This document shows positions 3,008-30,900 of a stretch of DNA of 64,000 nt, one piece after another. The notes below the pieces were generated by a model, which worked only from the letters and a program-made list of their open reading frames with translations, had not been told where the DNA came from and made no database searches. The translations under genes were made by a program, and so were the position numbers. Source of the stretch: Phoronis australis (taxonomy: Eukaryota > Animalia > Phoronida); contig NMRA01000014.1 of assembly GCA_002633005.1 (NCBI GenBank), positions 397,898-461,897 on the forward strand, read 5' to 3'. Positions within the stretch are counted from its first letter, which is position 1, and every line of letters begins with the position of its first letter.

Positions 3008-3173
3008 CTTTGGAGATGGCTAGTTCCTGTAACAGAGCCATGTACTCCAGTCGCTTGGGGTGTTCTGGGTTGTAGAGTGTGTAAGCATATGACACCAGTG
3101 CTGCAGTGTAGGAATCCAGAGTGGGCATTGGTTGAATATCCAAGCAGGAAATGGCACTGGTCACAGTTTCAGA
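3008..3173 (-). CDS. A2M: A2M-like exon 25 (...AISCL...[12 protein letters not shown]...)
   Basis: YTxALxxYAxxL helix motif; TAG/GTATG; last exon recognisable in the window. Confidence 0.92.
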
Positions 3174-6100
3174 CTACGAAAGGTAGATAAATATTATGTT
3201 AAAACAGAAAATGTTGTGAAGGCCAGATTCCAATACCAGTATGTAATGCATAACACACGATGTATTTAGTAATAAAATAAAAGAGACGTTTTCATTAATT
3301 TTGTTCCCAATGTGTTAATGCATTATTCAAAAATGGATTGAGCAGTGACTGAAAATGTTTAACGGAGAAGGACTATGTTATCATGACCTCAGCGACTGGG
3401 TTTTCCAAAAGACTGCTGAGAAATACACTATAGAAACAAATTGTGCCCAGAAACACACCATAATAAACGTTTGTGCCCAGAAACAAACAATTATTAACCA
3501 TTGTGCCCAAAAAGGAGTGTCCAGAAAGGAATCATAATTTGTTTGTGAAAAGCATCATGTTTCATTAATTTTGCATGTTTATGATATTATGTTAGTGATC
3601 CTCCCTGAAAATTACAATCCCACCTACTCCACGACATATCATATGCAAACCAGATCATTCAACTATTTTTAAAAACTTACGCTGGCGGGGAGCCCAGCTT
3701 CCAACATGGCAACCAGCACGTATGCTGTAAGTGCAGACTGGCTTCCCCCACTGATTCCACCTTGCATGTATTTACTGAGCACACGGCCCACTGACGGGAA
3801 GCAACCATTCTCCAGCTGATGTCCGATGAACCATGATATACTCTTGTTCAGCACCACTTCGTCGATGAAAATGAATGGTTTGGCCTGAAAATGGCAGACA
3901 GTAGCACAACGTGTAACCAAATTACTGAGTATGGAAGGAAAATTCTTGAAGAAAACAATATGGTGGACAGTCATCAGAGATTGGAGGGCCTTCAAGTGCC
4001 CATTTTTGTGAGCGACAGGTTTTATTTTTCCACGTAAATAATGCATCTCAAAAACAGCAAAAATGGCCACTAGGTGGTGCAAAATACCTCGATTCCATCC
4101 AAAAACGAGAGGATAGTGTCATCTCACCACAAAATGCCCAGATTCAAAATTTTATGAAAACCCAATGAGGACCTTTGAAAATATAGAAGAAAACGTAAAA
4201 CTAAAATTGCTACCAGGGTGCACACCTATAGTTAGATCCATTCGAAAATCGTCGTCGTCCGACGTCAACATCATATAAACACACTTCTTTAATTTAGTAA
4301 AGATCCTGCAAATGGTTTAGGAGATACGGCCATGGGAGAAAAAAAAACGAAACTGCCACTAAGAGGCGCCACAGTAATCGAAGTCATCAGAAAATCATCG
4401 TCACCAGTCCACTTCAGAGTAAAAACATACATGCCAATTTTCACAATTATCCTGAAAGCGGTTTGGTTGATAGAGGGGTGGACGCCGAAATACAGACGCA
4501 AAAACACTAAATATGGCCACTAGGGGGCGCAAACTCTACATCAAATCCATCTGAAAATGGAAAGATAGCGTCACCTAACAGAAGCCTGTACACCAAATTT
4601 CATGAAAATACATTGAGGGCCTTTGAAGATAAACACGTAAAAAAATAAAATTGCCACTAGGTGGCACAACAGTAGTCAGATCTGTCCGTAAGTCGTCGTC
4701 GTCATCATTATATAAATGCACTCACTAAATTTAGTAAAGTTTTAGGAGATATAGCCATAGGCTAAAAAAAACAAAACTGCCACTAGGAGGCGCCACAGTA
4801 GTCAGAAGTCGTCGGAAAATCATCGTCAACCTTGCTCTTCATAGTAGGAACTAACATGCCAATTTTCACCGATAATCACGCTTAGAGCGGTTTGGTTGAT
4901 AGCGGGGTGGACGCTAAAAAACAGACTCGAAAACAGTAAAAATGGCCACTAGGTGGCACAAACTACATCGAATCCATCCGAAAACGAGAGGATATTTTCG
5001 TCTCACTAATACTTGCCTATATATCAAATTTTATGAAAATATGTTTAGGACCTTTGAAGATACCGAGGTAAACGTAAAAAACTAAAATTGCCACTACGGG
5101 CACACCAGTAGTCGTATCCATCTGAAACTTCGCTCATGCCGTCTCATCCATGAAAGCAACACGGGTAAAATTTCATGAACATAAGTCAACTGGTTTTGGA
5201 GATAGAGCAGCGGACGCCGGATGCCAGACGAACGCCGCCCGGACGGACGGACGGACAGAGATGACGGCATAATGCATCCACATATAAAAATGTGGACGCA
5301 CAAAAAGAATGCAAAGGTTTTGCTGATCTTGCAAGGAAAGTTTTCCAATATGGCTTGGTCTTTCAGAACAGACACAGCGCACTTGTCAAAAGGTTTGTAT
5401 TGAACCTATCCCGTACAGACAGAGATCTTCTCTCTCAACACTGAGGAATCCAAATTTCTTCGAACACATGAAAACTGCGAATCGAAGACTAATAAAAATT
5501 GATCTTTGTTAAAAGCATGTTGCCAGGAAGCACATGCTACATACATGTACCAGTCATCGAAGACATTAGTCTTCGGGAACTACATGTATCTATTCACGAA
5601 ACGGGTAGCATCACATCGGCAAGAAATAAATATTGTCACTAATTTCCGAAAGTCTCTAATACAGTAAAACATGTTCGCCTTATTTTTAGGAAGAATTATT
5701 TAATTAATCATAATTGGTGTATTTGAAGTCAAAATAACCCACCGATACTGAACCCTTGTGCACCCTTACAGTCCCCCCCCGAATCTCCTGGAAAATAACT
5801 GGCGACTCACCGAGACAATTCTCTAAATGTTTTTTAGCATATGAGACCAACAAGTGCTAAATAAAACACGACCTGCTTTACTGCTTGTGTTAATTTCTTT
5901 AGATACAGTGCACACCTAGATCGTTACATTGCATTTACTCTGGCAAATGAATTCTGATGACACGCACGCACTCGGTCACTCACACAATACGAAGACGAAC
6001 TTCAAAACAAACCTCACGTGACAACAACATGTGTTACAGGGTACGATCTAGCGCAGATTTGGACTTAATAATTTTTTATGCAGTTAATCCTAACTCGACA

Positions 6101-9100
6101 GGAACTTAAAAATCTTAGGGACGCTATTTTGAAAACTTAGGGAGGACTTCGGGTAATTTGTTGAGGTGAAACTGTATTTTCATTCAAGAATTCAAGTTGC
6201 TCTATAGACGATCGCGAGGCAGCGACGCATCAATCGGCTAGTTTTTGCCCTGGGATTTCAGCATTATTTTCTGAAAAATGGTCGTAATTATACAACGAAG
6301 CTTGATAGCAATGCACCACAATTATATAGAAAGTCTGTCATAGGTTACAGATACGTCACAAAGCGTAAATTTTATGAATCCTAGCTTAAGATTTCACCTG
6401 TTTCGCAGACCGGGTTTTAACCGGCTCAGGCTATAATAAGCGCCCCCTTCCTGAAACATATTTTTCTAAGCGCTCTGGGTGCTTATTGGGGCAAATATGG
6501 TACGTCTTTTTCTGCCCTTGTAATATTCAACGTAACCACTCATGTTCACATCGATTGAAATTCATAATTACACTCAACACATAGATGCTGTTGCTATATA
6601 TACTTCATCAACACATGGAATTCTATATTTGCCCATAATTAAACTTATGAGCATGCCACGGCAAAGCCAACCAATGATCACTTCCTGTAACAGTATCATG
6701 TGACCTGGACTAACCTGGGCGAAACATTTGACGACGAAAGCAGTCAACCACATACTTCCAGAGTCATCACTCATGCCAAATGCACTGTAGGAACCATCAG
6801 GGTGTTTGTAGGTCAACTCACGCTGGTAACCTGAAGGGATGGAGTAGTCCACAAAATGCATTCAATAAACAGGAAATAAAGTTAGGCTAACAAACCAATA
6901 AACTTTGGCAAGAGTTTTGCCCAAGTTCGAGGGAGTTATGTCTACTATAGCTGATAAGCAAATTTGCAGCAAGTTCTTACTATGCAATGTCCAGAAAAAC
7001 TGTCAAAAAATTTCTGCCACAGTGACTATACTTTGACCAACACGCACATACTACATACTCCATAATAAGGAGAGTACTCGATAGTGAAAACAAGACAGTA
7101 AACTACGCCCCTTACTAGATTATGTATTTCGCCACAGTTTAGTCATTACTAGTATGACTTCTCACCTGATCTCATATATTCCTTAGCTTTACCCTCGATT
7201 ATCTCACTAGAAAGGCCTGTATTCTGCAGATACTGCAAGACAAAGATGTTGGGTGCAAAGCCGACCATGTTCTGCTCACCACATCCATATGGCATGCGCA
7301 GCAGGTTGTCTAGATTGGAGAGGGCTGGGCCCATAATGTCACCTAAGAAATGACAAGTGAGTGACAGGTGTGAGTCAAATGAAGCATTAGGGATATTACC
7401 AAGAATGTTATTTACGAACAAAATGTATCTCAGTGAAACTAGTGAACTTGACGCATTTGTTGGATAATTTCAAAAACTGGGGGAAACTGGCATATGCACC
7501 ATCACTCAGATTCGGAAAAACTGTTAGTAAGAAATGAGAAAGTAGCGATGACTAATTTTACAAATATTTTGTTGGACATTGAAATACAACTATTAACTCC
7601 GAAACATAAAACATGACCCAACTGCTCATATTTTCAACTGAGACCATTTCATGAATGTAATAAGCACCTGAAGACAATCTAGTACTGAGCGAAGACAGTA
7701 ACACCATGTTACAGGCTGGTCCAACTCACTTGATACTCTGCACTCATGAATTCAGTTAGACAGCTCAAACATACCAATGACTGTCACAGAGCCCCGTGCC
7801 GATCCATTGACAACATTAGAAGGTAGAGGGAGGTCAATTTCCTTGAAGTCAGACGTGTCCTCACCATCTGCGACAGTTAATACTATTTATTTAAACAAGT
7901 CAAGAGATGAACGATACAAAAGTAGCAAAACTATTTACAGCAACTGATATAAAGGCGATAGTAAGTGAATAGAATTCTGGTTTGACATTACACTAAAATT
8001 GAGACATTGAAAAAAAAGAGTGCAGGAGGTCTGGTGTCATTTGCAGAGCATCAAACATGCGCAGGTCTCATGGTTGGGCCTGTTGCACCAAACACCTGAA
8101 CTAAGAACACAAATGCCCCGTTATAGATCAACAGGTGCTTCGTGAAGGAAGTTTTCAAGTTAGTCAGTCTCCTTAAGAAAACCCGGCGACAGACGTTCCA
8201 CTTGCTGCAATGCACAATTTGGTGTAGGCATGTAACAGTGCCAACCAGTAGGTTGCTCCTTAGCCTATAAAAAGCTGAGCAAGACTCCACCACGTGTTTA
8301 AGGGTTTCAACTTCAACACTACACTTGGGACACACTGCGCGACCCCATACGCCCAATAACATATCTGTGTCAGGCTAGGTTACAGTGGTCTATCAAAATG
8401 CGAATGACTGTCTTATGCCCAATCTACCAACATGCCATAAGCATTCCCACTAAATAAGATTGCCCCAAACCCCGCCGATCAGGGAAAACGGTGGGGTTTG
8501 GCCGATTGAACTAGACCGTATTTATCCACCTTGGCTGTGTCGCGCTCAGCTCACGATCAAAGGGATCCTGCCAAGCTGCTCTATTCATCGAGTCACTAGC
8601 GAGGATAATTGGCTCCGCTCATGCGGATACCTTCAGCTGATTACAATCTAGCCTAGATGACTGTACCTTTATAGAGAGCATTTTACGTAGTTTTGAGAGT
8701 AATATTTGAAAAGAGAAAAAAAATGTTGGTACAACTTTGAATTTTTCAAATCGGCCCAGAATATGTGTGTTGCAACACTCACAATTACTTTCATTCGGCG
8801 AGCACGAATACAAAAATATAGGACCCAAGTTATAATAATATAGAACTACTCTGTATTTTACTTAGATTTTGGAACACATGCATTGCAATATTCAAAATAC
8901 AACTTTATTATACCTCTTGCAAGCTGTAAAACGACTTTGTTCAATTTCATTGTGCTCATTCCATTGTCATCCGTCAAGTCGGAAATTTCCCATTTCCCCC
9001 TCAAGAACATTTAAAAAAAATTCCCCTCATCAAGTCAAATAATTGCCCTCTGAATAATAAAAAATCCCCTTGTGGTTTTAAACTCAATCCTAAAAATATT

Positions 9101-12100
9101 GTGCTAAAACCCACTGATTTTAATCACGAGGCCTCCAGACCCCGGAGACGTCACAAACTGGTGCCAAATAGACTGGTTACTCTTTCATATTGAAAACACA
9201 AAACTAAAAGACAACTTCCCTTTGTTTGTGGCTCATTGGAACTAAAAGAAGTCCTACAAGAGAAAAAATGTGGAAACACAAGCAACGGAGCATAGAAACA
9301 CACAGGAACTAGAAAATGTTTTTGCTGAATAACTTGCAGTGCACTCCTCTCAGAAGCTAAAGCACACCACATTTAACAGCTAGCAAAACAGGATTACTCA
9401 CTAGTTAATTATATATAGATGCAGAGACTGGCCAAAAGTGAGATATATCAAATAAACACAAAAGAACAGCAACACGGAGCGTTGAAATGCGCCCACCAAT
9501 GCCGCGCAAATGGTGTGCATCTAGGGTTGTTCGTTTCATAAAAATAGCCACCCCGACACTAGTTGGCGCAAAAACGTCCAATTCATCTGAAAACGGAAAC
9601 ATGCTATAGCTTCATTCATAGACAGCTATTTACCAAATTTCATAAAAATTTGTCAAGGAACTTCAGAGAAACAAAGGAAAACAGAAAAAAATAAAATTTC
9701 CACTATGGGGCACAGCGTTCATTGTATCCGTCAGAAAGACGACATTGTCTGTTGTTAGCTTCCTATAAATATAATTACTACATTTGATAAAGATCCTGCA
9801 GTGTGCTCAGGAGATGCAGCTATGGGTGAAAAACAAACAAAACTACCACTAGGAGGCGCCACAGTCGAATTCGTTATTGTCAACCCTCCTTTTCACACTG
9901 AGAACATTATGCCTATTTTCAAAAACATCCTTAGAAAGGTTTGGTTGATCGAGGGGTCAGGATGCCAAAAACAGACTTGAAAACAGGAAAAATACCACTA
10001 GGTGGCGCAAAGCACCTCAATTCCATCCGAAAACGGGAGGATAGCATCACCTCACCAACAGGTGCCTATATTTCAAATTTTCTAAAAATCCACTGAGGAC
10101 CTTTGAAGATAAGGGCCACACTGGGGGTCAGATCCGTCTGAAAGTTGTTGTCATCTGTTGTCATCATCATATAAATACACTTGCCGAATTCAGCAAAGAT
10201 CCTGCTAACAGTTTAGGAGATACATCTATGGGTGCAAAAAACAGAACTGCCACTAGGAGGTGCCACAGTATTCGAAGTCATCAGAAAATCGTCAGATTCG
10301 AATACATGCCAATTTTCACAATCGTCCTTAGAGCAGTTTGGTTGATAGAGGGGTGAACGCCAAAAAACAGGCTCCAAAACAGGAAAAATGGCCACCAGGT
10401 GGCGCAAACTATGTCAAATCCATCTGAAAACCGGAGGACACGTGATCTCACTAATAAATACCTATATGTCAAATTTTATGAAAATGCATTGAGGACCTTT
10501 AAAGATACAGAGGTAAGCGTAAAAAACTATTTGCCACTAGGGGGCACACCAGTAATTGAATCTGTCCCATCCATAAAAAGAACATATGTGCCAAACTTCA
10601 CGAATGTACATCAAAGGTTTTGGAAAAAGAGGAGAGGATGCCAGACAGACAGATGCCGGACGGAGATGACGGCATAATGCGTCCAGATATGTTGGCGCAT
10701 AAAAAAACGCCTCGAAAATTCTGGTTAGAAGGTACACGCATCTTTCCCCTCATGAACAACCATAACAATGACATATCAAAGAGCGACACTGACCCAACTC
10801 TGTCACTGAATGGGATAACAACCTAGTGACTGAGGTTAAAGATTATAATCTCCCAACACCCAACTTTCTACACTAATAACTTATTCTTGTGTCAGACTGA
10901 GGGAGGAATGAGAACCTGTTTTATTGCCAGGAAATAGGTTGGTTAAATAACCATCTTCTAAGGACAATATAATATAGTAGCTAACAACAGTTTCGAGTTA
11001 AATGTTTACCTTTCTCTGGACAGAAGAAGGAGCTAAATGTGTACTCTTGAGGAAGGCCCTCGGGTTCTACCAACATAGGGCGAATAACAGCATCGGTCAG
11101 ACCAGTCAGGATGCTCATTGGTCTACGGCCACAAACTGTTTGGTTAGCTGCAGTACGAGCCTGAACAAAAATAAAAGAAATTTAATCAACGGTTTTCTTG
11201 CAAATGACACACAATTGGTAATAAAAATAGAATTACAATTGATGATAGAGAATTAAAATATTTTTCTCAGTTTCACATTAAAACAACATCAGCACCAAAA
11301 ATCTGATTAAAGTCTTAGCAATCACCATGTAATCAAACGTATTTGAGAGAAGAAAAAACTGAGTTACTTACAGCAACTGTGATGTTAACATTGCCAAGTT
11401 TCATGGGAATAATACGGAACTTGTGTGTCATCGTTTCTTGCCCGCAGACACAAAGGTCAACTGAGTTAACCTTGTTCAGTCTGTGGTAGCCTCCATCTGG
11501 ACTCCTCTTCAGGCGCAGATTAATCTACACAACGTTATCAAAATGTAAAGTGACATAGTTTTTGTTATTACCTGGTATCATACAGAGACACTCAATGAAC
11601 TTGAACCATTACTTCCACAATTTGTTCATACATCACTTACATCATACACAAGACCATATTCACATGACTACTCCTGTCTTTCAAACATGCTCATGAAACA
11701 ATGATGAAAAAAAGTTGATATAAACGGCAGTGATTGTGATGGATTAGGTATACCTAATTACAGGTTACCTATCCAGGATAACCTGTACACTAACAATGAG
11801 TCACCGGGTTTTTTAACTTACCGCCAGACATTCATCCAGATAGTTAAAAACAGATATCAACACAGGCACCTTCTCTCCACGAATGACCGAGTATGGCAGG
11901 TTGAAGGAAGCAAAGAAAGGTTTGAAAGCCTTGAGGGTGGTGATGGGTGCTACACCCAGTCCCACGGTAGGGTTGGTGCAGAAAGCACTCCCAACCCACT
12001 CAGTGATGGTATCAGGAACTTTCTTGGGCACTGCAAGCTCACCGCTCGCGCTGGAAATGACGAGGTTCATGATAACTAACTTAAAAGATAGATTTACAAA

Positions 12101-15100
12101 TTAGCGAAAGCAGCTTAATGCGGCAGGCCTTAACTTCGGAAATTATGTAAAACATTGATTCTATGTTAAATATGTCTACATGTAGCCAGAATTCTTCATT
12201 ACTGTTCAAACAACCAATATCACCAAACTTTACCAGACTGCACAGTGAAGTGGCCATTTACATAGCGTGAAATTTGCACCGCATACTTTAAGTTAAACTT
12301 TGTTCAACATGTAACATGTAATTTTCAAGTGAAATTGCGAGTATCCTGGGCCTAGATGCTCTATTAAACAATAAATAAAATTAAATGAATCTCAAAAATT
12401 AACTGATAAAACGGGTATAGTTGAAGAAACTTCCATCACAATGCACCAATGCACAACATGCAGACACGACACTTCCAAGACACTTTTGCACTTAGCTCCA
12501 TGTTTGCCAATATTGGAACTCATGCAATAATGGCAATTAAGATGGAATTGTCAGCAAGGATGAACACAAACAAGCTACTCAACAGAAAATTGCAATTTTG
12601 TTACATTTTTGATGAAGTACAGAATCAGTAAAATGAGGGCAGAGCCAGTCCAGCTCATTATCTTCAGTTGCAAAGATGAACTCGCACGTTGTGAGAATAA
12701 GTTTAGTGTGACAGCGGGCCTTAATTATGATACTTCTTGTCTGAAAAAGGTTATAAGTAATGTGATATCTGTCTACCTTAAATTAAGTTGAGTTTGACAT
12801 AGCTACATTTCTTCTTTCAAACGTAATTCTTTTTTCATCGTGTTAACGCTTAATTTCTATATTGTTTTTGTTGACACACCTAACTGTCAGAAGACGGATA
12901 GGAGGGGGTGACAACACCTTCATTTATTGATCTAAAATACAAGTAAACAATGTATTAAGAGGTTTGACACAGTTGACCAAAAAATTGCAAAGCAGCCATT
13001 GTTTTATGATTCTGACTAAACTAACAGATAAAATATTTGAATCTGACTTTATTTCAAATATCTCATTTTGTTTGACTTTATGTACTTAGAAATAAAACAA
13101 CAATAATGGCTTCGATTTATTTCTATACATATATATTCTAATTTTCGTCAAAGAGTCGTATTCTTCAGAGGATCTGCATCACCTCATTTAGTTTCAGAAT
13201 TATTTTTCATAAAATGTATAGCTTTGGCCAAAAGGTGCATTTGTTTAGGAGGATGCACTGGAAGAACTAATTTGGTGGCTTGTCCTTTTTTTTGGAAAAT
13301 TCGCAGTAGGTTAAATACAAAATATGAAAATTCAACGATAAATTGAAGCAGATCGAACCTCTTTAAACACAAATAAAACAAATACACAGCACCAAGGTGA
13401 TTCTTCGTTGGGTGTAACAAACATAAGGCGTAACAAATACAGAATAGAAATGGCAAGAAAAGACAAGTGATAGAAAAGAGCAGTTACCCAACAGGAAGTA
13501 AGGACCACAACCAAGATTCTGGAAAGTAGTGTCGCAGCTCAGAGGGAGGTTTGGAGGTCAGTGGTGGGGGGTAATCCTCAGAGAAAAAGGGAGGTCCTTT
13601 TTCAAGCAGGAGGGGAAAGTCACTCATGGGTGAAGAAAAGTCCTCTGAAAGAGTTAAGCACACATACCATGCAAGAGATAGAAACATAAGATGCGAAGCA
13701 GTTTCAGCAAGTCTTTCTGAGACAGTGTGAATATGTATACTTTGACTTTGTTCTCAAAATCTGCTTTAAAGAGACCTCTTGGTGAGAATAAGTCATTTTT
13801 AATTTGCAATAGTGCAAATTTGAACACATTAGCTGCGCAATTGCAGTTGAAAGCACTGCTGCTGAGCTACCTCTGACGTGTGAAATAGTTGAGTACTTTA
13901 AATGTATGTAAAAGGTAAGCACCGGAATTGACTTTAGTCAATGTCTGGCAGACAATGGTTAGAATTGCATATTTGTAATAAAATCACAAAAACTGAAAAC
14001 TTTTTTTTGTTTTGACACAAGACTAACACATGCAAAATTGAAACCAAAATGAGTTTTGGATCCAACTCATAATGTCCTTTTTAATAAATCGAACAAGAGC
14101 AACAAGGAGTGTTGAAATGCACCCAAGATAAACTGCAAATGGTGTGCTTCCATGGGTGTTTGTTGGAATAATTAAAATGGCCATTGGAAGATGTACAACG
14201 TGTCAAACCCAACTGAATTGAGAAGGTGGCATCTTCTCTGTAAAATACAACTATTCACCAAATTTCATTTAAATAAGCCAAGGAACTCTTAAGATATAGA
14301 GGGAAACGTAACAAACAATTGGCCCAAGGGGGAGACAGCTACAGTCCAATTGGTCTAAAACTAATCTTCATCAATGTCTGTAGAAGCCCATTTGCCAAAT
14401 TTCGCAAAGATCCTTCAAAGGGTTTAAGAGATATGGCTGTAGATCCAAAAAAGCAAATTTGACCCTAAGGGGCGCCAGAATAGTCAATAATCAACATCAT
14501 TCAGGCTCTTTGCATCAGAAATACAACCGTCAATTTTCCCAATCGTCCATTGCTTGGTTTGGCAGACAGAGAGGCAGACGTCAAAAACATATTAAGCAGA
14601 ATTTTTTTAAATAGCCACCAGGTGCAGCAGAAAACATCAAACCTGTCCAAAAATGGGAAGGTGTCATTGTCCCCTTGATAGAAACCTATTTGCCGAACTT
14701 CATGAAAATACATTCACGAAACACTCAAGATAGAGAGGTAAACATAAAAAAGGTAAAAAAGTTTGCTACTAGTGAGGCACAGTGGTATTTGGATTAGTTT
14801 GACATTTGTTACCATTTGTCGCCGGCTCCATACGAACACACCTTTCAAACTTCAAAACACAAAATCACCACTAGGGGCGACACAATAGTCGGACCCATTC
14901 GAAAGTCAACTTCAGTCATGGCTTTCTGAACAAGAAGACATCAGATTCTGTAAATTCTCATAATGCTCGTTAAGCGGTTAGCAGATAGGGAGGATGGACA
15001 CCAAGAACAGATGCAACAATACCAAAAATCAAATCTGTCTGAAAATGGGAAGGCATTGTCGTCTTCTTAATAAACCTATTTGCTGAACTTAATGAAAATA

Positions 15101-15916
15101 CATTACTGCAAAAAACGTTTTGTCCTTAGGGGGACAGTGATATTTGAATCAGGTCGACACTTGTTGCTGTTTGTCGCAGCACCATAGGAATACATCTTTC
15201 AAATTTCATAAAATTCCTTTAACGCGTTTAAATATTCAACCGGACAAAAATATGCACTAGGGGGCGACCCCGGCACAGTAGTTGAACTCATCCGAAAGTC
15301 AACTTCAGTCACGATCTCCTCATTGTGACCACATCTGTAATTCTCATAATGATCTTTTAAGCAGTATGGCAGATAGGCATGTTGACGAAAGGAAACAAAA
15401 ATGGCCATCAGATTGCGCAGAAAACATCAAATTTGTCCCAAAATGGGAAGGTATTACCGTCTACTTAATAGAAATCTATTCCCCATATTTCATAAAAACA
15501 CACTAATATTGATACCCGAAGAAACGTAAAAACAGTACTTTACCACTAGGGGGATCAGTGGATCAGTTTGAAACTTGGTACAGTGTGTCAACGGTTCCAT
15601 AGGAAAAATCTTTCAAATTTCACAAAGCTCCTTCAAAGGGTTAAGGAGATTTGGCCGCAGATTAAAAAATGCCACTAAATGGTGACACAATGGATGTACT
15701 CCTCTGAAAGTCAATGTCAGACATGGCCTTCTCATTACCAACATATCTGTAAATCTTTATAGTGATCAGTATGTCAGATAGAGTGGCAGACAACAGAAAA
15801 CAGACGCAAAAATAACAAAAATGTCCAAAAGGTGGCGAAAAAATCATCGCCTGTCTCTTAAATCCATTGTTTCAGGACTTAAACAACTGAGGCTGTGTAG
15901 ATGTTGTGTGTGTGGT

Positions 15917-15978
<62 letters not shown>

Positions 15979-18900
15979 TTCTTGATGAATACAACAGCCA
16001 CGATCTCTGCAACAGAAAATCTAAACATGTTGGAAGCATGCGAACGCCAATGAACGTGCCAAAAGGTCATGATGGCTGACGTCCTCTGTAGAGCAAACGG
16101 GCAACGAACTTGCAGTTCTATTATCTATATGCACAACTGTCATGTACCCACTGTGTTACCTACCAACTGACTTAACCCAGTTTAATAGCTATTTGTTGTT
16201 AATCTAATAATTTGAAGCAGTACAGACAGAAAATGAGTGATGGTGATGCTTGTTTTAAGTGGTGAATACTTTAATAAATAGGTCGCGAGGCCATTCAATT
16301 GTGTTGCATTAGTGCTGTCACACAATGTAACACCACACATTTAAACCAGATCAAGAAAACATTGGTCAACGAAAGAAGGCGTGTAAATTGAGATGTAATA
16401 TACCACTTTCAGGAAAATGTATGAATGTTCAACAACACAAATATTTTAACAACACAACAATCACACTTCAGAAAGACAAGCTGCTTGGCAACATTCACGT
16501 GTCAGAGAAATAAGTGACAAGAGTAGAAAAACACACAAGGAAACCAAGTAGGCCTATTGCAGCAGTCCTAGTCTTTGTCAGTTGATCATTAAATGGCACT
16601 AAGCAGCATATAGAACGAAGATAGAGTAGCATAAGCTGAAAGCAAACTGATAACATTGGCAAGGAGAGCTATATCTCAGCCACATACCCTACGACTTCCA
16701 GGTCCCACAGCCAGGTTTCAGGAAAATAAGAGCGGAGGTTTACTGAGGAGGCCTTTGGACTTGCTGTATTCGCCACAGAATCAACAACATCAGCATCCTC
16801 AACTGCAACAGCCATAGGCTCAGGTTGCTCAACACCAGGCTGACCTAAGACAGGCAAGACTCAACGACTACAATACACTGAATATCTTCAGAGTAGTCAG
16901 TCCTCCTTCCTTTCCAACCAAACAAGCATTCTATGCTTTTATTTCTCATGATCACAATTCTTGTCTTATGAAAATCTCTTCTAATGCACAGCGATTCCGT
17001 TCTTAACTCAGGTATCTTTGATCACAAATTTTTCATTTTGTAAGTAAAATAGGTGACTTCAGAACAGCTTTGAAATAATTAACAGTTTGCTATTACTTGA
17101 GACCAAGGTCCACAAGTTAGCTTGTCAAGGCTCAATGCACGTCATTTTGTGCAAGCGCATAGCATGGTTTTAAGGAATAACGAACTCTTAGTTCAATGAC
17201 AACCCAAAATTCACTTCTCATCTAAGTAAAGAACAAGTTGAGATCAACATAATGGTGATTGTAGTTTAAATCATGCTTGCTTCTAGAACAAGAAATGCAC
17301 TTATAACCAGATTTCTTCACTGATGAACCTCAGTACAGACAGTTTTGGTTGAAACGTAAAACTCTATGCTGCTACTGCTCTACACAAGGGGGTGAAAAAC
17401 CATGATTCATGAGACTGTCAAGTGCGAAAGTCTGACAGGAAATGCATCTTGTGACATCAGTTCACAATGAAGACAGGAAGACTAGCTACTGAGATGATTT
17501 TGATAAAACTAGTGTGCACTACTTCTATCTTGGGAACCTTGTGGCTGGAGGAATGATTGAACTTGTTGTAGTTTGAAGTTGATAGAGAATGAAGAAGCAG
17601 TACGCTTTGTGCCAAGTAGATGTTCCTTGAATTCACAAAATGTTCATTTCTTCACTGTCCCATGTGCACTTAACGAAATTAATGTAACGATCCTGACAAA
17701 GACTGGGTGAGCTGATGCCGAGGCCAGTATTATTATTATTACCCAACATGATGTAAATCCCACAGCCACGTTTCCGGAAAGTAAGATCGTAGATTCACCC
17801 CAGGAGCTCCGGCTCCAGTAACGGTCTTCAAGTTTACGCCATCGACGCCTGGCATGCCCCAAATAACACAAACAATGTTAAGTCAAAAATCTTATAAAAC
17901 ATAACAGTGCTAACAGCAGTTCTCTGAGAACATTTTAATAATGTTTAGATGATCAGTCTTCAGTAAAAAAACTACCTATAAATGAAAATCTGTACCTAGT
18001 TACATGGCAATTATTTCATTCAGTATTTTTTTTTTATTCTCTGAAAAAACGATGCTTGGCTCGTCAGAGGACTTCAGAAACAACTGTACAAGATATAATT
18101 GTGTACCATAGGTCATGTGTCATGACCAACATATGACCCAAATGAAGACTGAAGACTAACAATTTGTATTGATACTGTACAACATCTCTTGTGTCAATTT
18201 GCCCAGCCAACATATGGAGCCGAAACTTCCCAGAAAATAACCAGCAAAGAGAAAGTCAAATCACACTTGTTCCCCAAATCCTGTAGGAAAAGGCTGCTTT
18301 GTTTAGGACTGGCTATCTGGTGTCACATGACCATGTAATCTATTTGTCTTAATGAAGTCATTCACACACTTAGATCGCCTGGGATGCACGTAAAACAGAG
18401 CACGGAGACCTCAATATATGGTCATTTGGTATCAACTTTGAGTCAAGTAGAGCCATTTGTATAAATGCTCAATTGAGTTTAGTAAGCAATGTGCCTTTTA
18501 ATGATAGGGTACGGCAGAAGCAAAATTGTATGGAGCATTACACAACAATCCACAGCAACAAAGAGAGTCACATAAGCAAAATAGTCGAATTGCATAGTAA
18601 ATAAGCAATAGGTAAAAACACACAGTCATGCAAGCAAACACCAGATAGCACTCTGGACAATAGCTTTTTTAAAGTTTGGTTAACCCAAGATTGTTTGGAC
18701 ATTTTTTGCAGTGGCATACAGCCAGTGTGACAAGAGATGAGTGGACAACTAAATACATGTCCCACTAAAACAGTGTCAGTTTCGTTAATCAATTCACAAA
18801 GGTCAATAGTCACCAAGTCTGTGCAAAACTACCAATAATCTAGTGATAACTGACATTAGATTACTACAGTATTGCTAACAACACATTTTGGCATGTAAGC

Positions 18901-21900
18901 TATGGATTATTTCTGGACAAACAACCTGCAACAACATGATTGATCGAGAGTTCTTCCTGTACATACCTCTATGAAAATCGGGTCAAGGAAAAAAATTTGA
19001 CCAATCAGATCACTGACAGCTGCATATGCAATGCCCACATGATACCAATCTGCCAACATTTGTGTGTTAATTCACCATTTGTGTGCAATCAACTTTAAAT
19101 AGTATCATTATGAGGTAATTTGCGGTGTTCAAAAACCGATGTAACATTTGGTGCTATTGCTAGAGAGCACCAATGCAGACTTCATGACCAAGGACCAAGA
19201 AACTGTCCAGTGTCTGTGGGTTAACTGAATTTGTACAGAGATGCGACAGGCAAGCCTTTATCCAATAAAGCACTGGGACTCCTACCCAATAATGTTGAGC
19301 TCCCAAAGCCAGGTTTCCGGGAAATACGACCTTAGATTGGTAACAGGGGCAACGCTCTCGTCGACGACATTAAAAACTCTTGACCTACCCCGCTGTGGAC
19401 CTTATACAAGCAAGATAACAAGTTAATTGTTATCACTGATTAAAAATCACGGTTTGACACAGTCCAATATAAAAAGATTATATTCAAAAAGATTCAAGTT
19501 TTCTCTAACTTTGTAATTCCGGTACTTTGTTTCAAGTAAACTGACAACCATTTTAGAGCACCTATACCTATTTGTACTGACCTCTTGCATAGGGCATTAT
19601 TGTGAAGCGCCTACATGGACGGGTCTGCAAAGTTAGGTCTGTCATCACAACCTGTCCTTCCTCCTGTAACATTATGGTTAAGATTACCATTAGAGAAATA
19701 TATCTTTTTCATTAATACATTGCGAACAATTTGTCCCGTCAGCACGCCATCTTTTTGGCCACATCATGTGACCTAATAAATATAAGTACGAAAAGATTTC
19801 TGCCCCAACCGGATGGCGTTTTGCCAGGACAAATTGTTCATTACTATTACAGGTAACCTGTCCAATAGTAAACACAGGGTGCTCATCAAATTGCTCCGCA
19901 TATTGAAATGTGCGACACTAAACAACCATGCCCAACATTTTCCATAGTGTAAGCAAAAAGACAGTAGTCACCAAAGGAGGATATGCTGTTGGCAGCTCAC
20001 TTAATCAAGCTAATCTAACCCACAGAATTTATGAAGTACCTCAAAAGCCTGTAACGAGTCATAGTAGTTGGACTGGTCAGGGAACCATATGGATCTTTTC
20101 AGTCGCATAGGTGACTCATCTTCGTCAGCATCTTGGACGGACTCACCACCATCAGAATCGTCCTCACCTTCACCATTGCCAATCTCAGCACTGACATTAT
20201 CATCTTCTGGTTCTTCAGAGACACCCTCTGGTCTATTGTCGACAGGAACTAGTCGTGGCCGGTTGGGGGTGAAAGGTACTGGTCCTGGCCTCTCTGGCTC
20301 TAAAGGAATATATTAAAACCAACATTTAATGAGTGGAACTAAACAATGCATAACTGGATTTGTCTTGAGGACTTGACAGGAACCTCACAGGTCTCACCCT
20401 TCACTGGCTTATCTACGCTAATTTGATAAGGCTTTGTACAGTCAAGCGTTGCGGGTCATAAAAGAGATAATGATACATACAGCTGATGCAACAAGCAGAA
20501 CTATAACTCTTATTTATCGGTGCATACTCACAGGAGAAATTAATGATTCAACTCTTTCATACCACATTATCAGCTTGACATGGCCAATACAACCGTTAAT
20601 TAACCCACGCATTTAGTTATTCAATACGCGTTGAATAACATTTTGGCGGGAACCTGAGGCTGGTTTCGAACCTGCTTCACCCGATTTTCGAGATGTCGAC
20701 TTAACTGCTAACGTCATCGAAAGTGAAAATAGAACACTTAAATGAGGACGTGCAATATTGACATGTTCAACAAACGGCATTGTACGGACATTTAGACACT
20801 ATGAAAAATAAGACGCACAATTTCAATAAAAAAGTATTTTTAATTCAGTAAAATTTATCTGTCACTTTCTCTCAGTTGTAAATTATCGATCTCCAGTTTG
20901 AGTTCGGGCAACGTATAGTCAGGATCTTTTGACTTGGACATTATTCCAGTGGTAACCTTCTTTAGCACACGAAATTTTCACGGTGAAGCTTAACATGACA
21001 AGATGTGTAGTAAGCTAGACTAGTTGCTTAAAACTTATTTTACAGATTCGCTTTATTTTTTAATCTATTTTGTTTAAATTTTCAAGGGGTCAGGTATACC
21101 CTGGAAGGCCCCATATTGTAATATTGCAACACAACATTTGATAATCTATAATTAACCCCCCCCAATCACATTCCATTGGTTATTGGTTGTGTACCCTCCA
21201 AGGCCCCATTGTTGCAGTAATGCTACACTGTGAGGGACCTCTCTTGACAAATGAGCTATTTGAATTAGAAATTAAAGATGTCTGCCGCCACATTGTAAGC
21301 TGTCCTCTGAGCAAAAGGCAAAGACATTCTCTACTTAGTCCAGGTAAATTCATTATTTCAATGTAATGGACTCAAACCATCAAATATCATGTAGTTTACT
21401 GGGGTAAACCTTATGTTGAATAGTGTTTTGTTACCTAAGTGTGCTTGTCCTGAAAAACCATGTTGCATATTTGCAACACTGGGCTCTGTCAGTGTCATCA
21501 CCAAGCCAACACTCGTGCTATAGTATTCCGCCTGACCCTAGGTAGGGTTAATGCTCACTTATGCTAATTTTTTTTAACAAAAGCGCAGTAGTTTGTTTTT
21601 CCTTTTGAGCAGTATATTTATTCTTCTTAACAGAACGTCAGTTTGAATTGTTAGATTTTAATTTTTGTTTATTTGAAATAAACAATTTGCTTTTTTGTCG
21701 TCTCTGACATCACATTCAACATCATGATCGTATATGATCTCAGCCAGCGTCTTTATGAACTTATGTTATTTTTCAAGATTTTTACTTCGAAACACATGTA
21801 ATGTAGTACCATAATTGAATGGTCAATCGATTTCCTGATTAATTTTCAGATTCAAAACGACAAGGAAAACCCTTGAGTTGGGTAATAAGTCACATTTGTT

Positions 21901-24900
21901 AGATGGAGATGAGAGGGACTTGGAGGGCTTAGTTAGTGATGATGATGATGAAGGTTGCCCAGCAACATGCTGGCGATGACAAAAGCTCTGACAGTGACGA
22001 TGAACCACTATTAGTATTCGAGCCAATCGTATCCATGGGTGCAGTCTCAAAAATAAGGAGGTTCATTTAATTGAAGAAAAAGTTGATATCAACAAAAACA
22101 TCTGCGTTGCGCTCTAGTATGACAACTGTCATTTCACCTTTGGTGCCAGTCCAACTGATAATGTCAGAATATGGGACAAGAGCTCTAGGGCCCATTTCTA
22201 AATTCCAAGGCCATTTTGTGTGCAGCCAGTGCAATACATTTATGGATGGTGTCGACCTGTTGGATGCTCTGTCAGCAAAGTACAAGTACGGCATGACATC
22301 TCGAAGCAGGTGTCTGTACCTTCTTTGGCACATTATATCCGTTGTTGTTGTCAATGCCTGGCTGTTGTACCAAAAATTTGTGCTCTTCAAAGCCCGAAGA
22401 TGAGCTCATGAAGCTGAGAACTTTTCAAGCCCAGATTGAGACATCACTGTGTCAAGCTCAAAAGCGAGGCCGGCCATCGTTGGATGAAGTTAAGTCGCCA
22501 AAGCCTACACCAGCAAAGAAGACAAGAAAAGCAGTTGTTCCGCATGATGCCAGCTACAATAATGTTGGTCGCAGACCCATAAAAGTTGCTAAATAGGTTT
22601 TTGCAAGTACTGGGTTGATGACATACTGAAAGTGCGTGTAAGAAATGCTTCACTTCACAAAAAAACTTTTCGACTGTATCACATTTAGTTTTTTACGACT
22701 AAAGTTTAGATGCAACAGACAGTGTGAATCACTGGCCCATAAAGATCTTTCAACACATTGTGTTGACTTCAATGCAGGAATAGTATGAGAACTAACTTAA
22801 CTTAATTATTAGTATATTTTACTAGTGTAACAAACTTAGTAATCTGAAACTGAGCAGAAGGAAATGCTGATAATTAGATTAATTGTAATATAAAAAAGTG
22901 TTTGATGTGATGTTGTTTTGTAGTGAATGATTTTCACAAATAAATGTCTAGTAGATAAACATGGGACATTTGCTACTATCCGGAGCTCCCATTGTTGAAA
23001 AATTGCAACATTGTATAAAATGAGGTCGCTGAGTGCAATTTTTCTAGTGACCTATCTTCTAGTAATATTGAGCTCAAAAATTTTAAGTAGTTTGAACATC
23101 TGGGCCTTCTGGGGTGGTTTAAGTAAAAACATTAAGAACCACTCAGCGTTTCGTAAAAGGTCACGACCTCCGACCCCGGGCCTCTGACACAGAAAGTAGG
23201 TACAAAAGCCGAGGGCTGTCGAGAAAGGTAGATAGATTCATCGCAATGTTTATCAATCAGAATGTGGTATAAATACATTATNAAAGGTTTCGTTAAAATC
23301 GACCGAGGGGTTATTTTGCTATGAATGTACCTTTCTTAAAAATGGAATTTTTACTTAAAAAAGGTTTATACGTAAAAATAATAATGACAAATAAATACAA
23401 AAAGTATATTTATATTTCCTGATCTTTGCTCTTTCAGAAAATATATACTTTTACTAGTTGACAAAGCTTAGTTTTTTTGATATACGAGTTAGAACAGAGG
23501 CCACTAAATAAGGTTTGAAATAACCTTAAGTAAAAACATTAAGAACCACTCAGCGTTTCGTAAAAGGTCACGACCTCCGACCCCGGGCCTCTGACACAGA
23601 AAGTAGGTACAAAAGCCGAGGGCTGTCGAGAAACGTAGATAGATTCATCGCAATGTTTATCAATCAGAATGTGGTATAAATACATTATTACATGTTCTCA
23701 GTCATTATTTGGTAGACAATTCTTCAAAAACCAACTCGGGCTCTAGATTACAAGGGATAACCAATACGCCATGTAGTAATATCAACCATCTGACTATCCA
23801 CTTGTTTTGGGAGACTTAATTCTCATACCTGTGTGCTCAATGATGATGCGCAATTTTTAGAGCTGTGTTCACAATAATCAACAATAAAAGTGGAGAGCAA
23901 ATATGTACCCCTTGTACTTTTTTCCAGTTGTAATTTTGAAACGCCTAATATTTCAGATGCGAGCAAAATAAAAAATACATGGCCATTCTCACTTTCAGTA
24001 ATGGAAACACTAACTACTCACTACATTGCAAAAACAAACAAAACTGCCACTAAGAAGCGCCACACTAGTCAAAGTCGTCAGAAGGTCATCGTCAGTCGCC
24101 CTCTTCATAGTTACAACATATATGTCAATTTTCAAAATCATCCCTATAGCAGTTTGGTTGACAGAATGGCAGACCCCAAAAAATAGACTCAAAAACAGTA
24201 AAAATGGCCACTAGGGGGCGCAAAGTAAAGTACCTCGAATCCGTCCGAAAACAGGAGGATGGCAACATCTCAGTAATAGATGCCTAACTGACAAAGCTTA
24301 TGAAAATCTGTTGAGGACCTTCAAAGATACAGAGGTAATTAGCGTAAAAAACTAAAATTGCCACTAGGGGGCACACCAGTAGTCGGAGAGATTCGAAGTC
24401 AGAGAGATTCGAAATTCGTCATCATCCGTTGTCAGCTTGATAGGAACACATCCGCCAAATCTCATCAAGATCCTGTGAAGGGTTTAGGAGATACAGCTGC
24501 AGACGCCAGACGCCCAGAAAGAGATGACAGCAATATGCGACAACATAATAAATATGTCGGCGCATAAAAATGTAAACACGCAAGTCATATTTCTTCAGAC
24601 AGCTCTTAACATCGATTCATCAGCTTCACGGGTAATAAAATGTAATTGGCCGAATAGATCTGTGGTTTGCTGTTGAGCCAAGACTGTCCTGAGTTGCCTA
24701 ATGTGCCTACTCTGGACTGTCCCTCACAATGATTTAATGTTATGCCATCAAATCAATCTGAACACAACAGCCTTGCTCAAGTACATGAATCATGAGGCAG
24801 TATAGCCATTGACTTTAAGGTTTATGAAAATCACGAAAAAGTCTGGACATGACTTAATGTCATGCACTGGAATAGGTAACGTGCAGTCATTGACCTAAAG

Positions 24901-27900
24901 CTGAAGCTTACATTCAAATACCTGAAAAGAACCCAATGAAACTTGACTGCTCTCTTGTCTTTGGGGAAAGGAGCTGACGTCTTCTGATAAAGATTATTTT
25001 CAAGTGAATGGAAAATCCTCCTTATAATCCTAAATCTAGCTTGTCTTTTGACAAAAGACTGGTTTGTGGGAGCTTTAGTTCATACTTACCAATCGGTGGT
25101 AATGTGGGCTTGGGCAGTTTAGCAAGCTGTTTATCGCAGTAGTCATTATAGTCGTTGCTCCACCTACTGCCGATATTGTACTGCTTTAGCTGTTCGAAGA
25201 TACGAGCTATTGTCAGCTGGTTGCTACTGCGCAGGATATGAACACTCTTGTCAACAACACCGACAGCACACAGAGAGTCAGGGCTAGCCTTCAGACGAAA
25301 GGTGGTATCACCACCAGGGTGCGCTGTTTGCTCACCCAAGCTCATGTCAACCTGCAGGAACACGTGATGAGATGTATTATCTTATACATTCCACTACGAG
25401 CGGTGTTAAATTCAGATCACGTAATTATTTATTTTAGTCCAGGCAAAAGGGTAATTTTAGTCCAGAAAAAGAGGGTGTGCCCCTTTTGAGAAATCCCCAG
25501 AAGCATTGCACAGTTTACTTGAAGCTGGTAAATGCACGAGTGCATGCATGCAATTTCTATTGTGACAGTTTACCTTGTTTGCCAGGCACTTCTCCACAGT
25601 AAGCTCAGTTGAGTCAGCCACAACTTCGCCATCAGGACGGGTGTAATACACAACTAGGCGGGACAGCGGTGCCATCTCAGAGGTTACACGGAAACGAAGC
25701 TTGACACTGCTAACGTGAGGCGGCAGGGTAATGTTGGCATTGGTGTCCTCAATGAAGAAATATGGAACTGAAATACAAGAAAAAAATAATAAAACCAGCA
25801 CCAACAACAGAATGAAAATACAAAATTATTCATTAAATAACAACAGCAAGATCAAAATTAATGAACAAAAAGGAACACAACACCTTACAACAGAAGGCAT
25901 TGATATAAGCCAACTGTGTGAATAGTTTTCCTCCCAATATATTTTGAATGTTCTTAAACAGAACTACTCCTCAACTCACAGATAACATCACGTCTATGAC
26001 GGCCAAGCACTGATGCAGTGTGCGGCACAATGGTTTCTTCCACAGCAGGTTGACGAGGGTCTTTCTCATTCTCCTGGGACACGGTGTCAGGGGAACTTGG
26101 CTGTCTATAGTCATGGTGTATGAAACGGTGGTGCTTGTGGCCACTGTGCACAATATTACCACGTGACATCACCTGCAAAGTATGTAGGAGTGGCATCAGG
26201 ACACAGAAGAACAGGAGCTCAGAATTCACAATGAGCAACTAGTGAGACTATGGTCCAGCCTGCTTTCTACAAGCCACATGCAACACAGTCCAAGAAAAAC
26301 TCCCAACACTGGTGAACAGGTCTATTCTCGATCTGTTCATGAAACCAATGATTCGTTCTTCTTTACCAATGTGGAGAATCTCTAGAGCCTCTCGATTTGT
26401 ATTGCCAATTTTCTTTGAGGTTTATAAAATTCGTTTACTGTGTTGAGCTGTTAAGTGTGAAACAGTGCAAAGTGACACAGTGCAGGGTCATCATTATCAA
26501 GCACACATTTACACTCACAACTTGAGTCCTGGCAACACAGCATTAGTTTGAGACAAGAATGTGGAGTGCACAAAATGGGGCAAGTACTTGCAAATTTAGA
26601 TTACGTTTGAAATTTTTTTGGACATGTCATGATTACAATACATTCTGAACTAAAAGGCAAAGCAATTCAGTCAGTAGATATGGCGTGGAAACAATCAGCC
26701 TTAAATACCCCATTGCGCAAACACACGCGACATGGTTGTTTCTACATTGAAACAGTTTTGCAATACACAGATGGTATGGGACAAGATGGTCAGGATAGAG
26801 TTCCTCTACCTCAGAAAATGGATATAAATTTGACACCACAGTCATTGTGTCAACTTGCATTTACTACACAGATGCTTACACCTCATCAATTCTTTCTGGG
26901 TCAACAAACAATTATTGAACTAACAATTTCAGGTATTGCAACACCAAGCCCACAATATTTCAAATGACACTCATGCTCTAAAAAGAACACAGATCCTACC
27001 TCATAGTTGAACTTGAAGTCTGTGTTTGCCTCGGTCGTGTACGCAACAGTGATCTCAACCTCCTCATCACAAAGGAGAGTACGGTGCAGTGGATTCACCT
27101 GCAGGAAGCTTCCTGAGGGTGAAAACCACTGCTTGACATGGTGGTTGCCAGTGGGCATGTACATGCGCAGGTAGTAGGGGTCATCTTCGGTGTATGTGTA
27201 ATTGTACTCTACAGCTCTGGCCTAGAATAGCAGACATGGCACAGTCATTGGATCAAAGCATTTAGTGATTACAGCCAATCAAAACACAGGTAGGATATTG
27301 AATGAGACCGTTCTCTGAAAAGAAGAGTGCAGACATTATCCTTATTCTCAACAAAATCAAACAAATCTGGAAGGGATTAAGACAAAAGTTAGGCAAAAAT
27401 AGCAAGTTAGGTTCTGACTCATTTTGAAACCTTTGCCTCACAACTGGCATAAGGTAATGCTGGGTAAAAAAGATCCCCATCTGTTGAAAATATCTGAAGA
27501 AAGGCAGAATGCTATTGTCATTAGAGATCCTATTTGCCAAATTTCATGAACATCCATCACCTTGGTACTTACTAGATATTTAGGCACACACAAAGAAAAT
27601 CATAGGTGGAGTGAGGGAACACTGACAGTAGCCAGACTAGCCTCTGACTCCATGACAGCGCTTTCCCGCTCAGTGACTTTACCAGATGTAGAAGGATGTG
27701 AGCGTGTGATAACATCTAGCTTTTTTGTTAACTGCCAAGCACAGCCTTTTGCCTGGTATGACAACACACAGGCCAATTATCTACCAGGCTTATTACAGAC
27801 CAGGCGTGAACACAGCCAAACCCAGAGCAAATTGGTAGGTTCGGGAAGAATAGATTGTGGTAACTTCGGTTGTAGTTGGGCAATTTTGGCCATTCAAAAA

Positions 27901-30900
27901 CTAAACATGATCACCATAATGATGAAGATTTCAGTAATGCAATTGGTTTCTGTCCAAATAGGTTATAACCCAACTTTTACTTTGAACAGCAAAGCTCAGT
28001 CAGGCTAGATATAATCTTATTGGAGATTAGAGCAATTATGGAATAAAAGAGAGCTGGCCCTCCAACCATAAATGCCAGAATGGAGTTAATCAGTCGTGTA
28101 AGATATTGGCTACATGGGTCATATTCCCAACTTGTAGTTGGGCTATAGAACCAAACACCTTGGGAGCAACGGGAAAACAAAATGCAATATGACACATACC
28201 TTCCTGAACACATAAAATCAATTCCAATGAATATCCATTCGAAACACTTGGTATATACTAATGCACAGACAAAAAACAAACTTCTGGGTTTATCCAACTT
28301 GGAGTGTTCCATAATTCTAATCCCCAGAGACCCGTTTAGTCTCTCCTAGGTAGATATGGGATGGGTCCTCCATGTGAGAGAGCTGGTAGATCACACATGA
28401 CTTCTTGTTGTTGGGAGTGGGATCCTTGAGGACTGGACAATCCACCATGAACTGAGATTACAAAAAAACAGCTCTCCCAGATTATAACCCATTTCTATAT
28501 CTGGGTCAACAAAACGCACATAATCCATTCGTTGAAAAATATTCTTAAATGACGATGAAGACGTTCAAATAAAAACTTCACAAACTTACTATTTTATCGC
28601 ATCATAAAAGATGTCTGAGCACAAAGAGAATATTAGTGGTAACCACTGTAAGCATAATTTTTTCCTGCTGCTCCTTGAAGCATGGTACAAAATTGGGATA
28701 TATGTTGTCACATCAGCCAAAAGACTGCACTCGGCTGTTAACAAAGGAGCCAGATGTTATCAGACCTTCACAACTAGCATAAGTCAGGGAAAGTCACTGG
28801 ACAGAAGAACACCCTAATGTGACAGGGGTGTTGGTGGATACAACACTGGACCCTTGCAAGACACCAGAGGGAGATGATGACATAATGTGCCCACACATAT
28901 AACTTTACTTATATTGGTGCGAAAAAGCTGAGTGGAATGGCTGTCAAACTAACAAGTGTTTAGCAAGTGTATCTTGCTTTTGTACCTCGCTTATACTGAA
29001 CATCTCAAGAATTTGCTCAGTTTGCCTCAACTTCTGGTAACTTACGCGAATACTGTACGAGTTGTCCAAAATCTGCTTGAATGATGGTACCGAATACACA
29101 AACTCGCCATTCTTGTCTGTTTCATAATACTGCTGAAACACCTCACCAGACTTGTAGTTATCCACCTTGATTTCAATGATCTGCCTAGGAGCGGGCTCAC
29201 CACCAGGAGTTGTAACGATGGCCTGAAATGAAGCATGGTAAAACTAGCCCCACATGCCATCAATATGCAAATGAACAAGAAAGCGTGCACTGTTTACCCT
29301 AGAGAACCCAGCGATTTCCTCAGTACAGGCGCCATCACAGATTGAAATGAACTAGTTGCTATTCATGGGCTTGGCTAAATGTGTATTGACTGAGATAATT
29401 GCGGTCATATACCCACATGTCTGTTAGTAAGAGGTTTAAAGTTAAAATACAGACACTAAATTGGGCAGTCGACCAACAGGACTTTTTCTTAAAATTGAAA
29501 AGTAAACATTAAAGGCGAAGGCAACCTTTTTCCATGTCATTTTGAGCTAAAATAAGGTTGGTTGGTTATCCTAGACATATTTTTCACTTAATTACAGCTT
29601 TTCGTAATTTTATTAATTACTCGTCCGCTTTTCCGGAAGTGACGTTTTAGGAGGCAAGCGCTTCCCGCCACTTGGTTTTGCGTTGAGCTTACTGTGCGAA
29701 TCTGTTCTATTCTACTTTTGTTTTGTGCTATTTTTCACCAATTGTCGCCACCACTTTCCATCGGCGAGTATTCTGCGGCAAGATAGGTTAGTAGAGAACT
29801 CAACTGCGTTGGATTTAGGGATTGTTTAGTGTGTTGTAAGCTGAAAATGGCTGGAGTCGGTGACCCGTATCACAGTGACAGTAGTGTGAGTGACGGAGAC
29901 CTTGTTCACAGCAGTGGTGACGAGGAATTTTTTCACGGACATTCAGTGGGTGGGTACATGTTTGAGCCCGAGTACAACGAGGCAGAGTACACACAGGCAC
30001 AGGCAGCTGTTGAGAGAAACGAGGCGGCTACTGAAGACAGACGTGGTGACACATCTTGGTGCAAATGCACTGTGTGCGTTGTTATGCCTACCTCAATTGA
30101 ATGCTTGTGCTGTTCCGAGTTCCACATCAATTATCTTTTTGGTCTCTTCCTCCATTAGAGTGTATGTGGTATACTTGGCGGACCGCCCTGGTGAGTCAGA
30201 CAAGTTCTCCTTCTCCATGAATTCCGCCACCAACTCGAGATGTTGTGACATGTATGCGTCATTGACAACTGGTATTAAATAGGAATTCTGAATGTTGTTG
30301 AATGTTGTTTTCGAAAAAAAACTTGACTTTTCCAAAGTCCATCATTGTCTTCACCGACTGAAACGTGTTTCCAGTGAAGAGCACACCACTGGACATGGTT
30401 AAGTGGACCTCCGGCATACCACGGACAGAGGAACAACTGTCCCACTTGCCAGAGTGTCCCGTGACACACTCCCACTGGATGGTGACCTGAGCACCCAAAC
30501 TGCTTACATTGTGTCGTGTGACTCCCTCGCCACACACCTGGCACCTTCTAAATAGCTCCAACACTTTAGACAAGTCCACAATAAACTTATCAAAGTTTGG
30601 CTCACCGATCTGTTCACTGGACGACGAACTGTCCTCTTCACTGGGTGTCGAACTGGGCCTGTAATCACTCCCACTACTCAATATCGCTGCAGGGCTGCTT
30701 AGAGGCTCTGGGCTGGAGAAAACAGCACAGGGCGAATCACTACTGGTTCCAGGAATTGCACGCTCTGGGGTACGTTCGGAGGCACGGGTGACAGTAGATG
30801 AAGTGCCTCCACTGGCTCCAGTCACTGTACTGGCCACAGCTCGCGAGGCTTCTCGCTTCAAAAACGCACTTCTCGGGGGTGGCGACGGGGCACTGCCGGG

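Follow-up and report, generated by a model that had tools for sequence, protein, structure and literature searches.

Alternatively spliced bait regions have been described in several thioester-containing proteins, and the locus analyzed here, an alpha-2-macroglobulin (A2M) gene on the minus strand of a 64-kb window from Phoronis australis (64,000 nt of contig NMRA01000014.1), is a further case of this already published bait-exon cassette design. In the A2M of the snail Biomphalaria glabrata (BgA2M), two alternative exons of 91 and 133 nt encode the FPETW motif, and both lengths leave a remainder of one when divided by three (1 mod 3), as do the exons described below; a 229-nt exon follows the cassette, and two exons farther downstream (93 and 177 nt) also match the Phoronis gene in length (Duval et al. 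2020, PMC7016707, in whose supplement the exon-length column of BgA2M was recognised by its A/B/C variants). Whereas BgA2M combines two copies with an optional piece upstream, Phoronis has four copies and no such piece was seen, and the orthology of individual snail and Phoronis copies lies beyond the resolution of the 17 codons that can be compared. The TEP2 gene of the same snail carries an exon-22 cassette of twelve tandem, mutually exclusive exons with the same end motif and phase as here; eleven of their lengths as listed are 1 mod 3, and the remaining exon is given as 231 nt with coordinates that span 232 (PMC7016707, Table S4). It differs from the present gene, however, in being an insect-type TEP with twelve copies over 30 kb, whereas here an A2M carries four. 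The BgA2M variants were found in transcriptomes, as were those of TEP2 (PMC7016707). As cited in the same article, the bait or a bait-like region is alternatively spliced in Drosophila Tep2 (five isoforms) and the Chlamys farreri TEP (six mutually exclusive exons), both of the TEP class, unlike here, as well as in Fenneropenaeus A2M-2, where alternative bait-region splicing gives six variants. Bait splice variants are also known, as here, from the A2Ms of ticks (Ornithodoros, Ixodes, Rhipicephalus, Haemaphysalis, and Amblyomma; PMC7962413 and database isoforms), but in ticks small segments, flanked by an invariant exon-16-like part on one side and an invariant FPETW part on the other, are freely combined, and the variation is combinatorial, not frame-exclusive.

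In the Phoronis gene, four tandemly duplicated exons, here called A (19286..19400, 115 nt), B (17743..17848, 106 nt), C (16688..16844, 157 nt), and D (13488..13644, 157 nt), lie on the minus strand between the constant exon 16 (19582..19663, ending in phase 1) and the constant exon 18 (11822..12050, 229 nt, starting in phase 2). All of them have AG/GT ends and lengths of 1 mod 3, and the exons reported by the first-pass annotation of this DNA were thus reproduced in position, length, phase, and splice sites. A six-frame scan of the 64 kb found the motif FPE(T/S)W exactly four times, always on the minus strand and within 13488-19400. Among 355 relatives examined, 253 proteins bear the motif and 249 of these bear it once, as had been asserted for the family; the other four are two long tandem fusions and two Nucella models with three adjacent modules. 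A weight matrix trained on the four 3' modules, which as its training set score 65-78, gave a next-best site of only 4.4, and we thus conclude that the window holds no fifth or decayed copy. The acceptors of the cassette exons contain 11, 8, 10, and 11 pyrimidines, as compared with a range of 8-14 for 23 constitutive exons. The introns between A and B (17849-19285) and between D and exon 18 (12051-13487) are both 1437 nt long without sharing similarity, which we take as a coincidence.

When all 16 possible inclusion patterns were enumerated, only the four single-exon patterns remained open, while stops appeared on skipping the whole cassette and in the six double, four triple, and quadruple combinations. 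Inclusion of all four exons ran into a TAA in C and then into a second stop at the C/D joint, and the enumeration bore out the earlier proposal that only single inclusion is productive. Read-through into the intron likewise meets a stop right after A, B, and D.

RNA reads were placed on positions 16000-23270, a stretch that covers exons 15, 16, A, B, and C, with D and exon 18 lying outside it. The material consisted of three raw runs labelled as the same species, about 19% of each being used, and one contig set, and the few exon differences suggest that the RNA does come from this species. A joint was listed only if at least three reads supported it in one run, and repeat-derived depth, which makes up much of the total, was ignored. 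The joint between exon 15 (20040..20299, minus strand, a constant acidic linker ending in YYDSLQAFE) and exon 16 was supported by 12, 21, and 17 reads per run (50 in total) and by one contig. Exon 16 was in turn joined to A by 2, 7, and 1 reads (10 in total, plus one contig), to B by 1, 3, and 4 reads (8 in total), and to C by 5, 9, and 3 reads (17 in total). These joints, seen in all three runs, sum to 35 reads versus 50 for the joint of exons 15 and 16; 17 reads bypassed both A and B, and 8 bypassed A, while no A-B, A-C, or B-C joint was listed in the three runs over this stretch at the threshold of three reads per run. Mapping of the junctions from 19582, the check suggested in the first-pass annotation, found three of the exons joined to exon 16, not one, and no chained joint among A, B, and C at this threshold. 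The accompanying claim of at least four isoforms has support for A, B, and C at their joints to exon 16 in RNA, while the fourth, with D, is predicted from the sequence. Two places noticed by eye as candidates for an extra exon, near 16085 and 18280, were rejected, as no joint was listed for either and 16000-16242 had almost no depth.

Taken together, the single-inclusion frame rule and the joining of three of the exons to exon 16 in RNA indicate that the gene likely makes four traps. The reading that we favour, and regard as probable, is that of four tandem-duplicated exons admitted to the frame one at a time, giving what are likely four secreted traps that are identical except for the latter half of the bait and that likely differ in the proteases that trigger them or in the efficiency of triggering.

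Our hand-built model of the gene comprises 25 exons (3008..53525, minus strand) with AG/GT ends and no stop, runs past the low end of the window, and yields 1289-1306 open codons with any single cassette exon. Its start resembles a signal peptide, and the thioester motif GCGEQ is intact in exon 22 (7166..7342, minus strand; motif and Pfam scan). The Pfam families A2M_BRD, A2M, and TED_complement scored above the cut-off on five of ten exons scanned singly, with exon 18 matching PF00207 at an E value of 1e-22, and no Pfam family was found on the four cassette exons. By its MG/bait/TED domain order with GCGEQ, the predicted product is a thioester protein of the A2M superfamily. The segment between the linker Cys, which lies in a TRPC sequence in exon 16 together with the first ten bait residues, and RxxFPETW is unstructured, with no anaphylatoxin or LDLa domain there. 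In a FastTree analysis of the C-terminal part (31 rows), the gene fell outside the CD109/TEP clade (99) and, with support of 92 and 90, among invertebrate A2Ms, where its precise position was weakly supported, and its nearest named database matches are A2Ms. Judged from these sequence comparisons, it is a member of the A2M subfamily rather than of the CD109/insect-TEP clade. Downstream of the thioester, the place of the catalytic His is taken by Ser here and by Asn in opossum A2M, and oyster CD109 has the His; since the A2M of a nemertean has His at this position, its absence is not a strict A2M feature. Homologue searches with exon 18 gave a best identity of 72%, and those with exons 14 and 24 gave three and two distant proteins, respectively, so that the matches included no close relative in which conservation of A, B, C, and D could be followed. 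Exon A produced weak matches to the solved structures of C5, A2M, A2ML1, C4, CD109, and C3, with a best E value of 0.009. The constant exons also carry the basic motifs RHRR (exon 12, 25980-26172) and RLKR (exon 15), which we take to be possible furin-type processing sites, and comparable RxKR/RxRR motifs lie upstream of the bait in the relative P0002 and in the nemertean protein.

The four copies resemble one another only at their 3' ends. Over 51 nt they are 49-71% identical, while elsewhere they are unrelated, and 10-15 of the 17 terminal residues are identical between copies. Furthermore, of the 61 degenerate codons that copies have in common, 41 show synonymous differences, D included. 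Conserved residues combined with so many synonymous changes indicate that the duplications are old and that the motif has been maintained in all four copies; exon D, too, looks selected on this evidence. In contrast, the variable parts of 17-34 residues cannot be aligned, as 290-813 of 1000 shuffles score equally well. That of A is basic (three Arg in 20 residues), and that of B is short, with Gly, Ala, and Val at 10 of 17 positions. The long variable part of C is acidic and rich in Ala and Val, with no Phe, Tyr, Trp, or Leu in 34 residues, whereas the equally long part of D is Pro-rich, with nine Pro and nine Phe, Tyr, or Leu in 34 residues. Counting the ten residues from exon 16 and the cassette part, the baits of A, B, C, and D would be about 30, 27, 44, and 44 residues long.

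Human A2M provides a framework for how such swaps might act. Its 39-residue bait begins after the linker Cys, and the sequence, length, and site position of the bait set its cleavage as well as the range of proteases inhibited and the efficiency of inhibition; a single site added to an inert bait confers inhibition (PMC8267569). In a plug-in-channel model, the stretch that directly follows the bait, above all R732 and F735, passes through a channel and thereby keeps the protein in its native state as long as the bait is uncut (PMC9352918). An Arg and a Phe that match R732 and F735 are present in every Phoronis copy. With one copy per mRNA, the product would thus be an A2M whose bait combines a constant first half with a swapped second half, and cutting of this bait would release the Arg/Phe plug that is proposed to hold the native state. 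Since the intron lies 3' of the motif, each copy carries its own LRxYFPE(T/S)WLW, and this need for a motif in every copy would explain why the 3' 17 codons are conserved while the 5' part was free to diverge. Transcripts with no copy or several copies contain premature stops and would presumably be degraded. As to how one exon is chosen, docking/selector pairing of the Dscam type gave a best duplex no better than shuffles (26/30; 3/12 as good) in a coarse scan of a single species without orthologous introns, which is a weak test. The proposals of the first-pass annotation that the exons arose by tandem duplication, that the frame enforces single inclusion, and that the cassette sits at the A2M bait agree with the frame, the divergence of the copies, and the comparison with human A2M, and a role in immunity, which it also proposed, may be envisaged for such traps.

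Several observations weigh against this reading. The ten constant bait residues from exon 16 include Arg, Phe, Tyr, and Met, and common proteases may therefore cut all four isoforms alike. The RNA support consists of the 5' joints of A, B, and C, as D and the exon-18 junctions lie outside the stretch covered. The presence of unspliced sense-strand reads in the introns prevents us from assigning to D the 15 reads by which the joint of exons 15 and 16 exceeds those into A, B, and C. The bound on double joints is weak, given the three-read threshold and the mere 10 and 8 reads that enter A and B, and minor double inclusion may occur. In addition, exon use showed no significant difference among the runs (permutation p 0.30, 35 reads).

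One alternative is that the exclusive cassette is real while the protease range of the isoforms is similar. The constant half would then be the bait, and the variable half would tune length, trigger efficiency, folding, or the binding of a non-protease ligand. Given the specificities of trypsin-like and chymotrypsin-like enzymes, the exon-16 residues do offer sites for both, and in human A2M the length of the bait and the position of the site alter the yield of native protein and the efficiency of inhibition (PMC8267569, PMC9352918). However, the variable parts contrast in their share of basic, acidic, and aromatic residues and of proline more sharply than length tuning would need, and one site added to the inert human bait already suffices for inhibition (PMC8267569). 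We thus consider this alternative rather unlikely.

We also considered that splicing itself may not be exclusive, RNAs that include several exons or end within the cassette being degraded or yielding truncated N-terminal proteins, with exclusivity confined to the full-length proteins. One contig indeed spans exons 15, 16, and A and then continues through the A donor into the intron up to 19200, and sense-strand reads lie in the cassette introns (17944-19285, with a depth that reaches about 5 in run X3); they may reflect slow splicing or truncated transcripts. The immediate stops after A, B, and D and the failure of docking pairing to exceed shuffles point the same way. On the other hand, a slowly spliced pre-mRNA would give intron reads too, and the reads that skip A and B (17) or A (8) were not accompanied by any double joint at the listing threshold. 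The odds that we give to non-exclusive splicing are accordingly low, and it would alter how the copies come to exclude one another while leaving the full-length isoforms the same.

A cassette of three exons, with D silent or rarely used, appears improbable. Among the copies D has diverged most (10-11 of 17 residues identical, and FPESW in place of FPETW), and the RNA support covers A, B, and C. However, D has an open frame, good splice sites, and the correct phase, and of the degenerate codons that it shares with A, B, and C, 7 of 8, 3 of 9, and 7 of 9, respectively, carry synonymous changes with the motif intact, which would be unlikely for a long-dead exon; use of D is likely. Finally, an artefact of the assembly or motif matches by chance, for which one could cite the gaps in the window and a duplicated stretch next to a single N (23282), hardly deserve consideration, as the copies are 49-71% identical over 51 nt yet unrelated elsewhere and RNA links A, B, and C to the same exon 16, which refutes an artefact for these three.

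Comparison with other lineages allows a broader version of the favoured reading. The A2M of the nemertean Tubulanus polymorphus has five isoforms in RefSeq (X1-X5; P0123, P0011, P0124, P0122, and P0125) that differ in one swapped bait segment; known from proteins alone, it is a mirror image of the Phoronis gene, as the counterpart of exon 16, the first bait half, is swapped while the FPETW part is constant. Predicted isoforms of ticks, horseshoe crab, and chiton vary in short middle segments of the bait and keep a single FPETW part, and the 11, 15, and 14 tick isoforms examined have one FPETW tail each. All of these relatives are represented by predicted proteins, of which up to 15 were listed per cluster. 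These sequences suggest that the bait has been diversified repeatedly and independently across lineages. That a bacterial protease cuts Drosophila Tep2 and Tep4 within the bait has been reported, with no comparison of isoforms in the passages concerned (PMC12846816). The broader version, which we put forward only tentatively, would combine a regulated switch among four protease ranges (basic, small-aliphatic, acidic, and proline-rich) with the A2M bait as a convergent hotspot where lineages have independently multiplied different exons: Phoronis and snails the second bait exon, the nemertean the first, and ticks and chiton free mini-exons.

Elsewhere in the window, intron 9 holds an element (29509-31457) that is bounded by terminal inverted repeats of 191 nt (93%) and contains an open reading frame of 309 aa (31188-30259) in which a THAP domain was recognised (E 4e-15); it probably derives from a DNA transposon. 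At 23100-23685, about 160 nt are duplicated on both sides of the single N mentioned above, likely an assembly overlap or a repeat. A dispersed repeat family with a periodicity of about 400 nt occupies several introns, at 14200-15800 and, by eye, at 4050-5300, 9550-10700, 24040-24560, and 45800-47300, and a (TG)36 microsatellite lies at 15905-15977. On the plus strand, a fragment at 32300-32800 reads, by eye, WLRHVDDTF, which we take to resemble a retroelement reverse transcriptase.

Cassettes of this kind matter for genome annotation, as prediction from the snail assembly gave only one of the twelve TEP2 variants (PMC7016707), and the three FPETW modules in a row in the Nucella lapillus TEP models P0113 and P0200 are probably a cassette chained by gene prediction. 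A literature search outside subscription journals found descriptive reports and no isoform-by-isoform test of protease specificity for such a cassette, and isoform-specific protease capture may so far be proposed here from sequence features. With four forms that are identical but for 34-51 residues, the Phoronis locus is a clean natural bait-swap series, and it could test the long-repeated assumption that the isoforms of such proteins differ in the proteases they capture.

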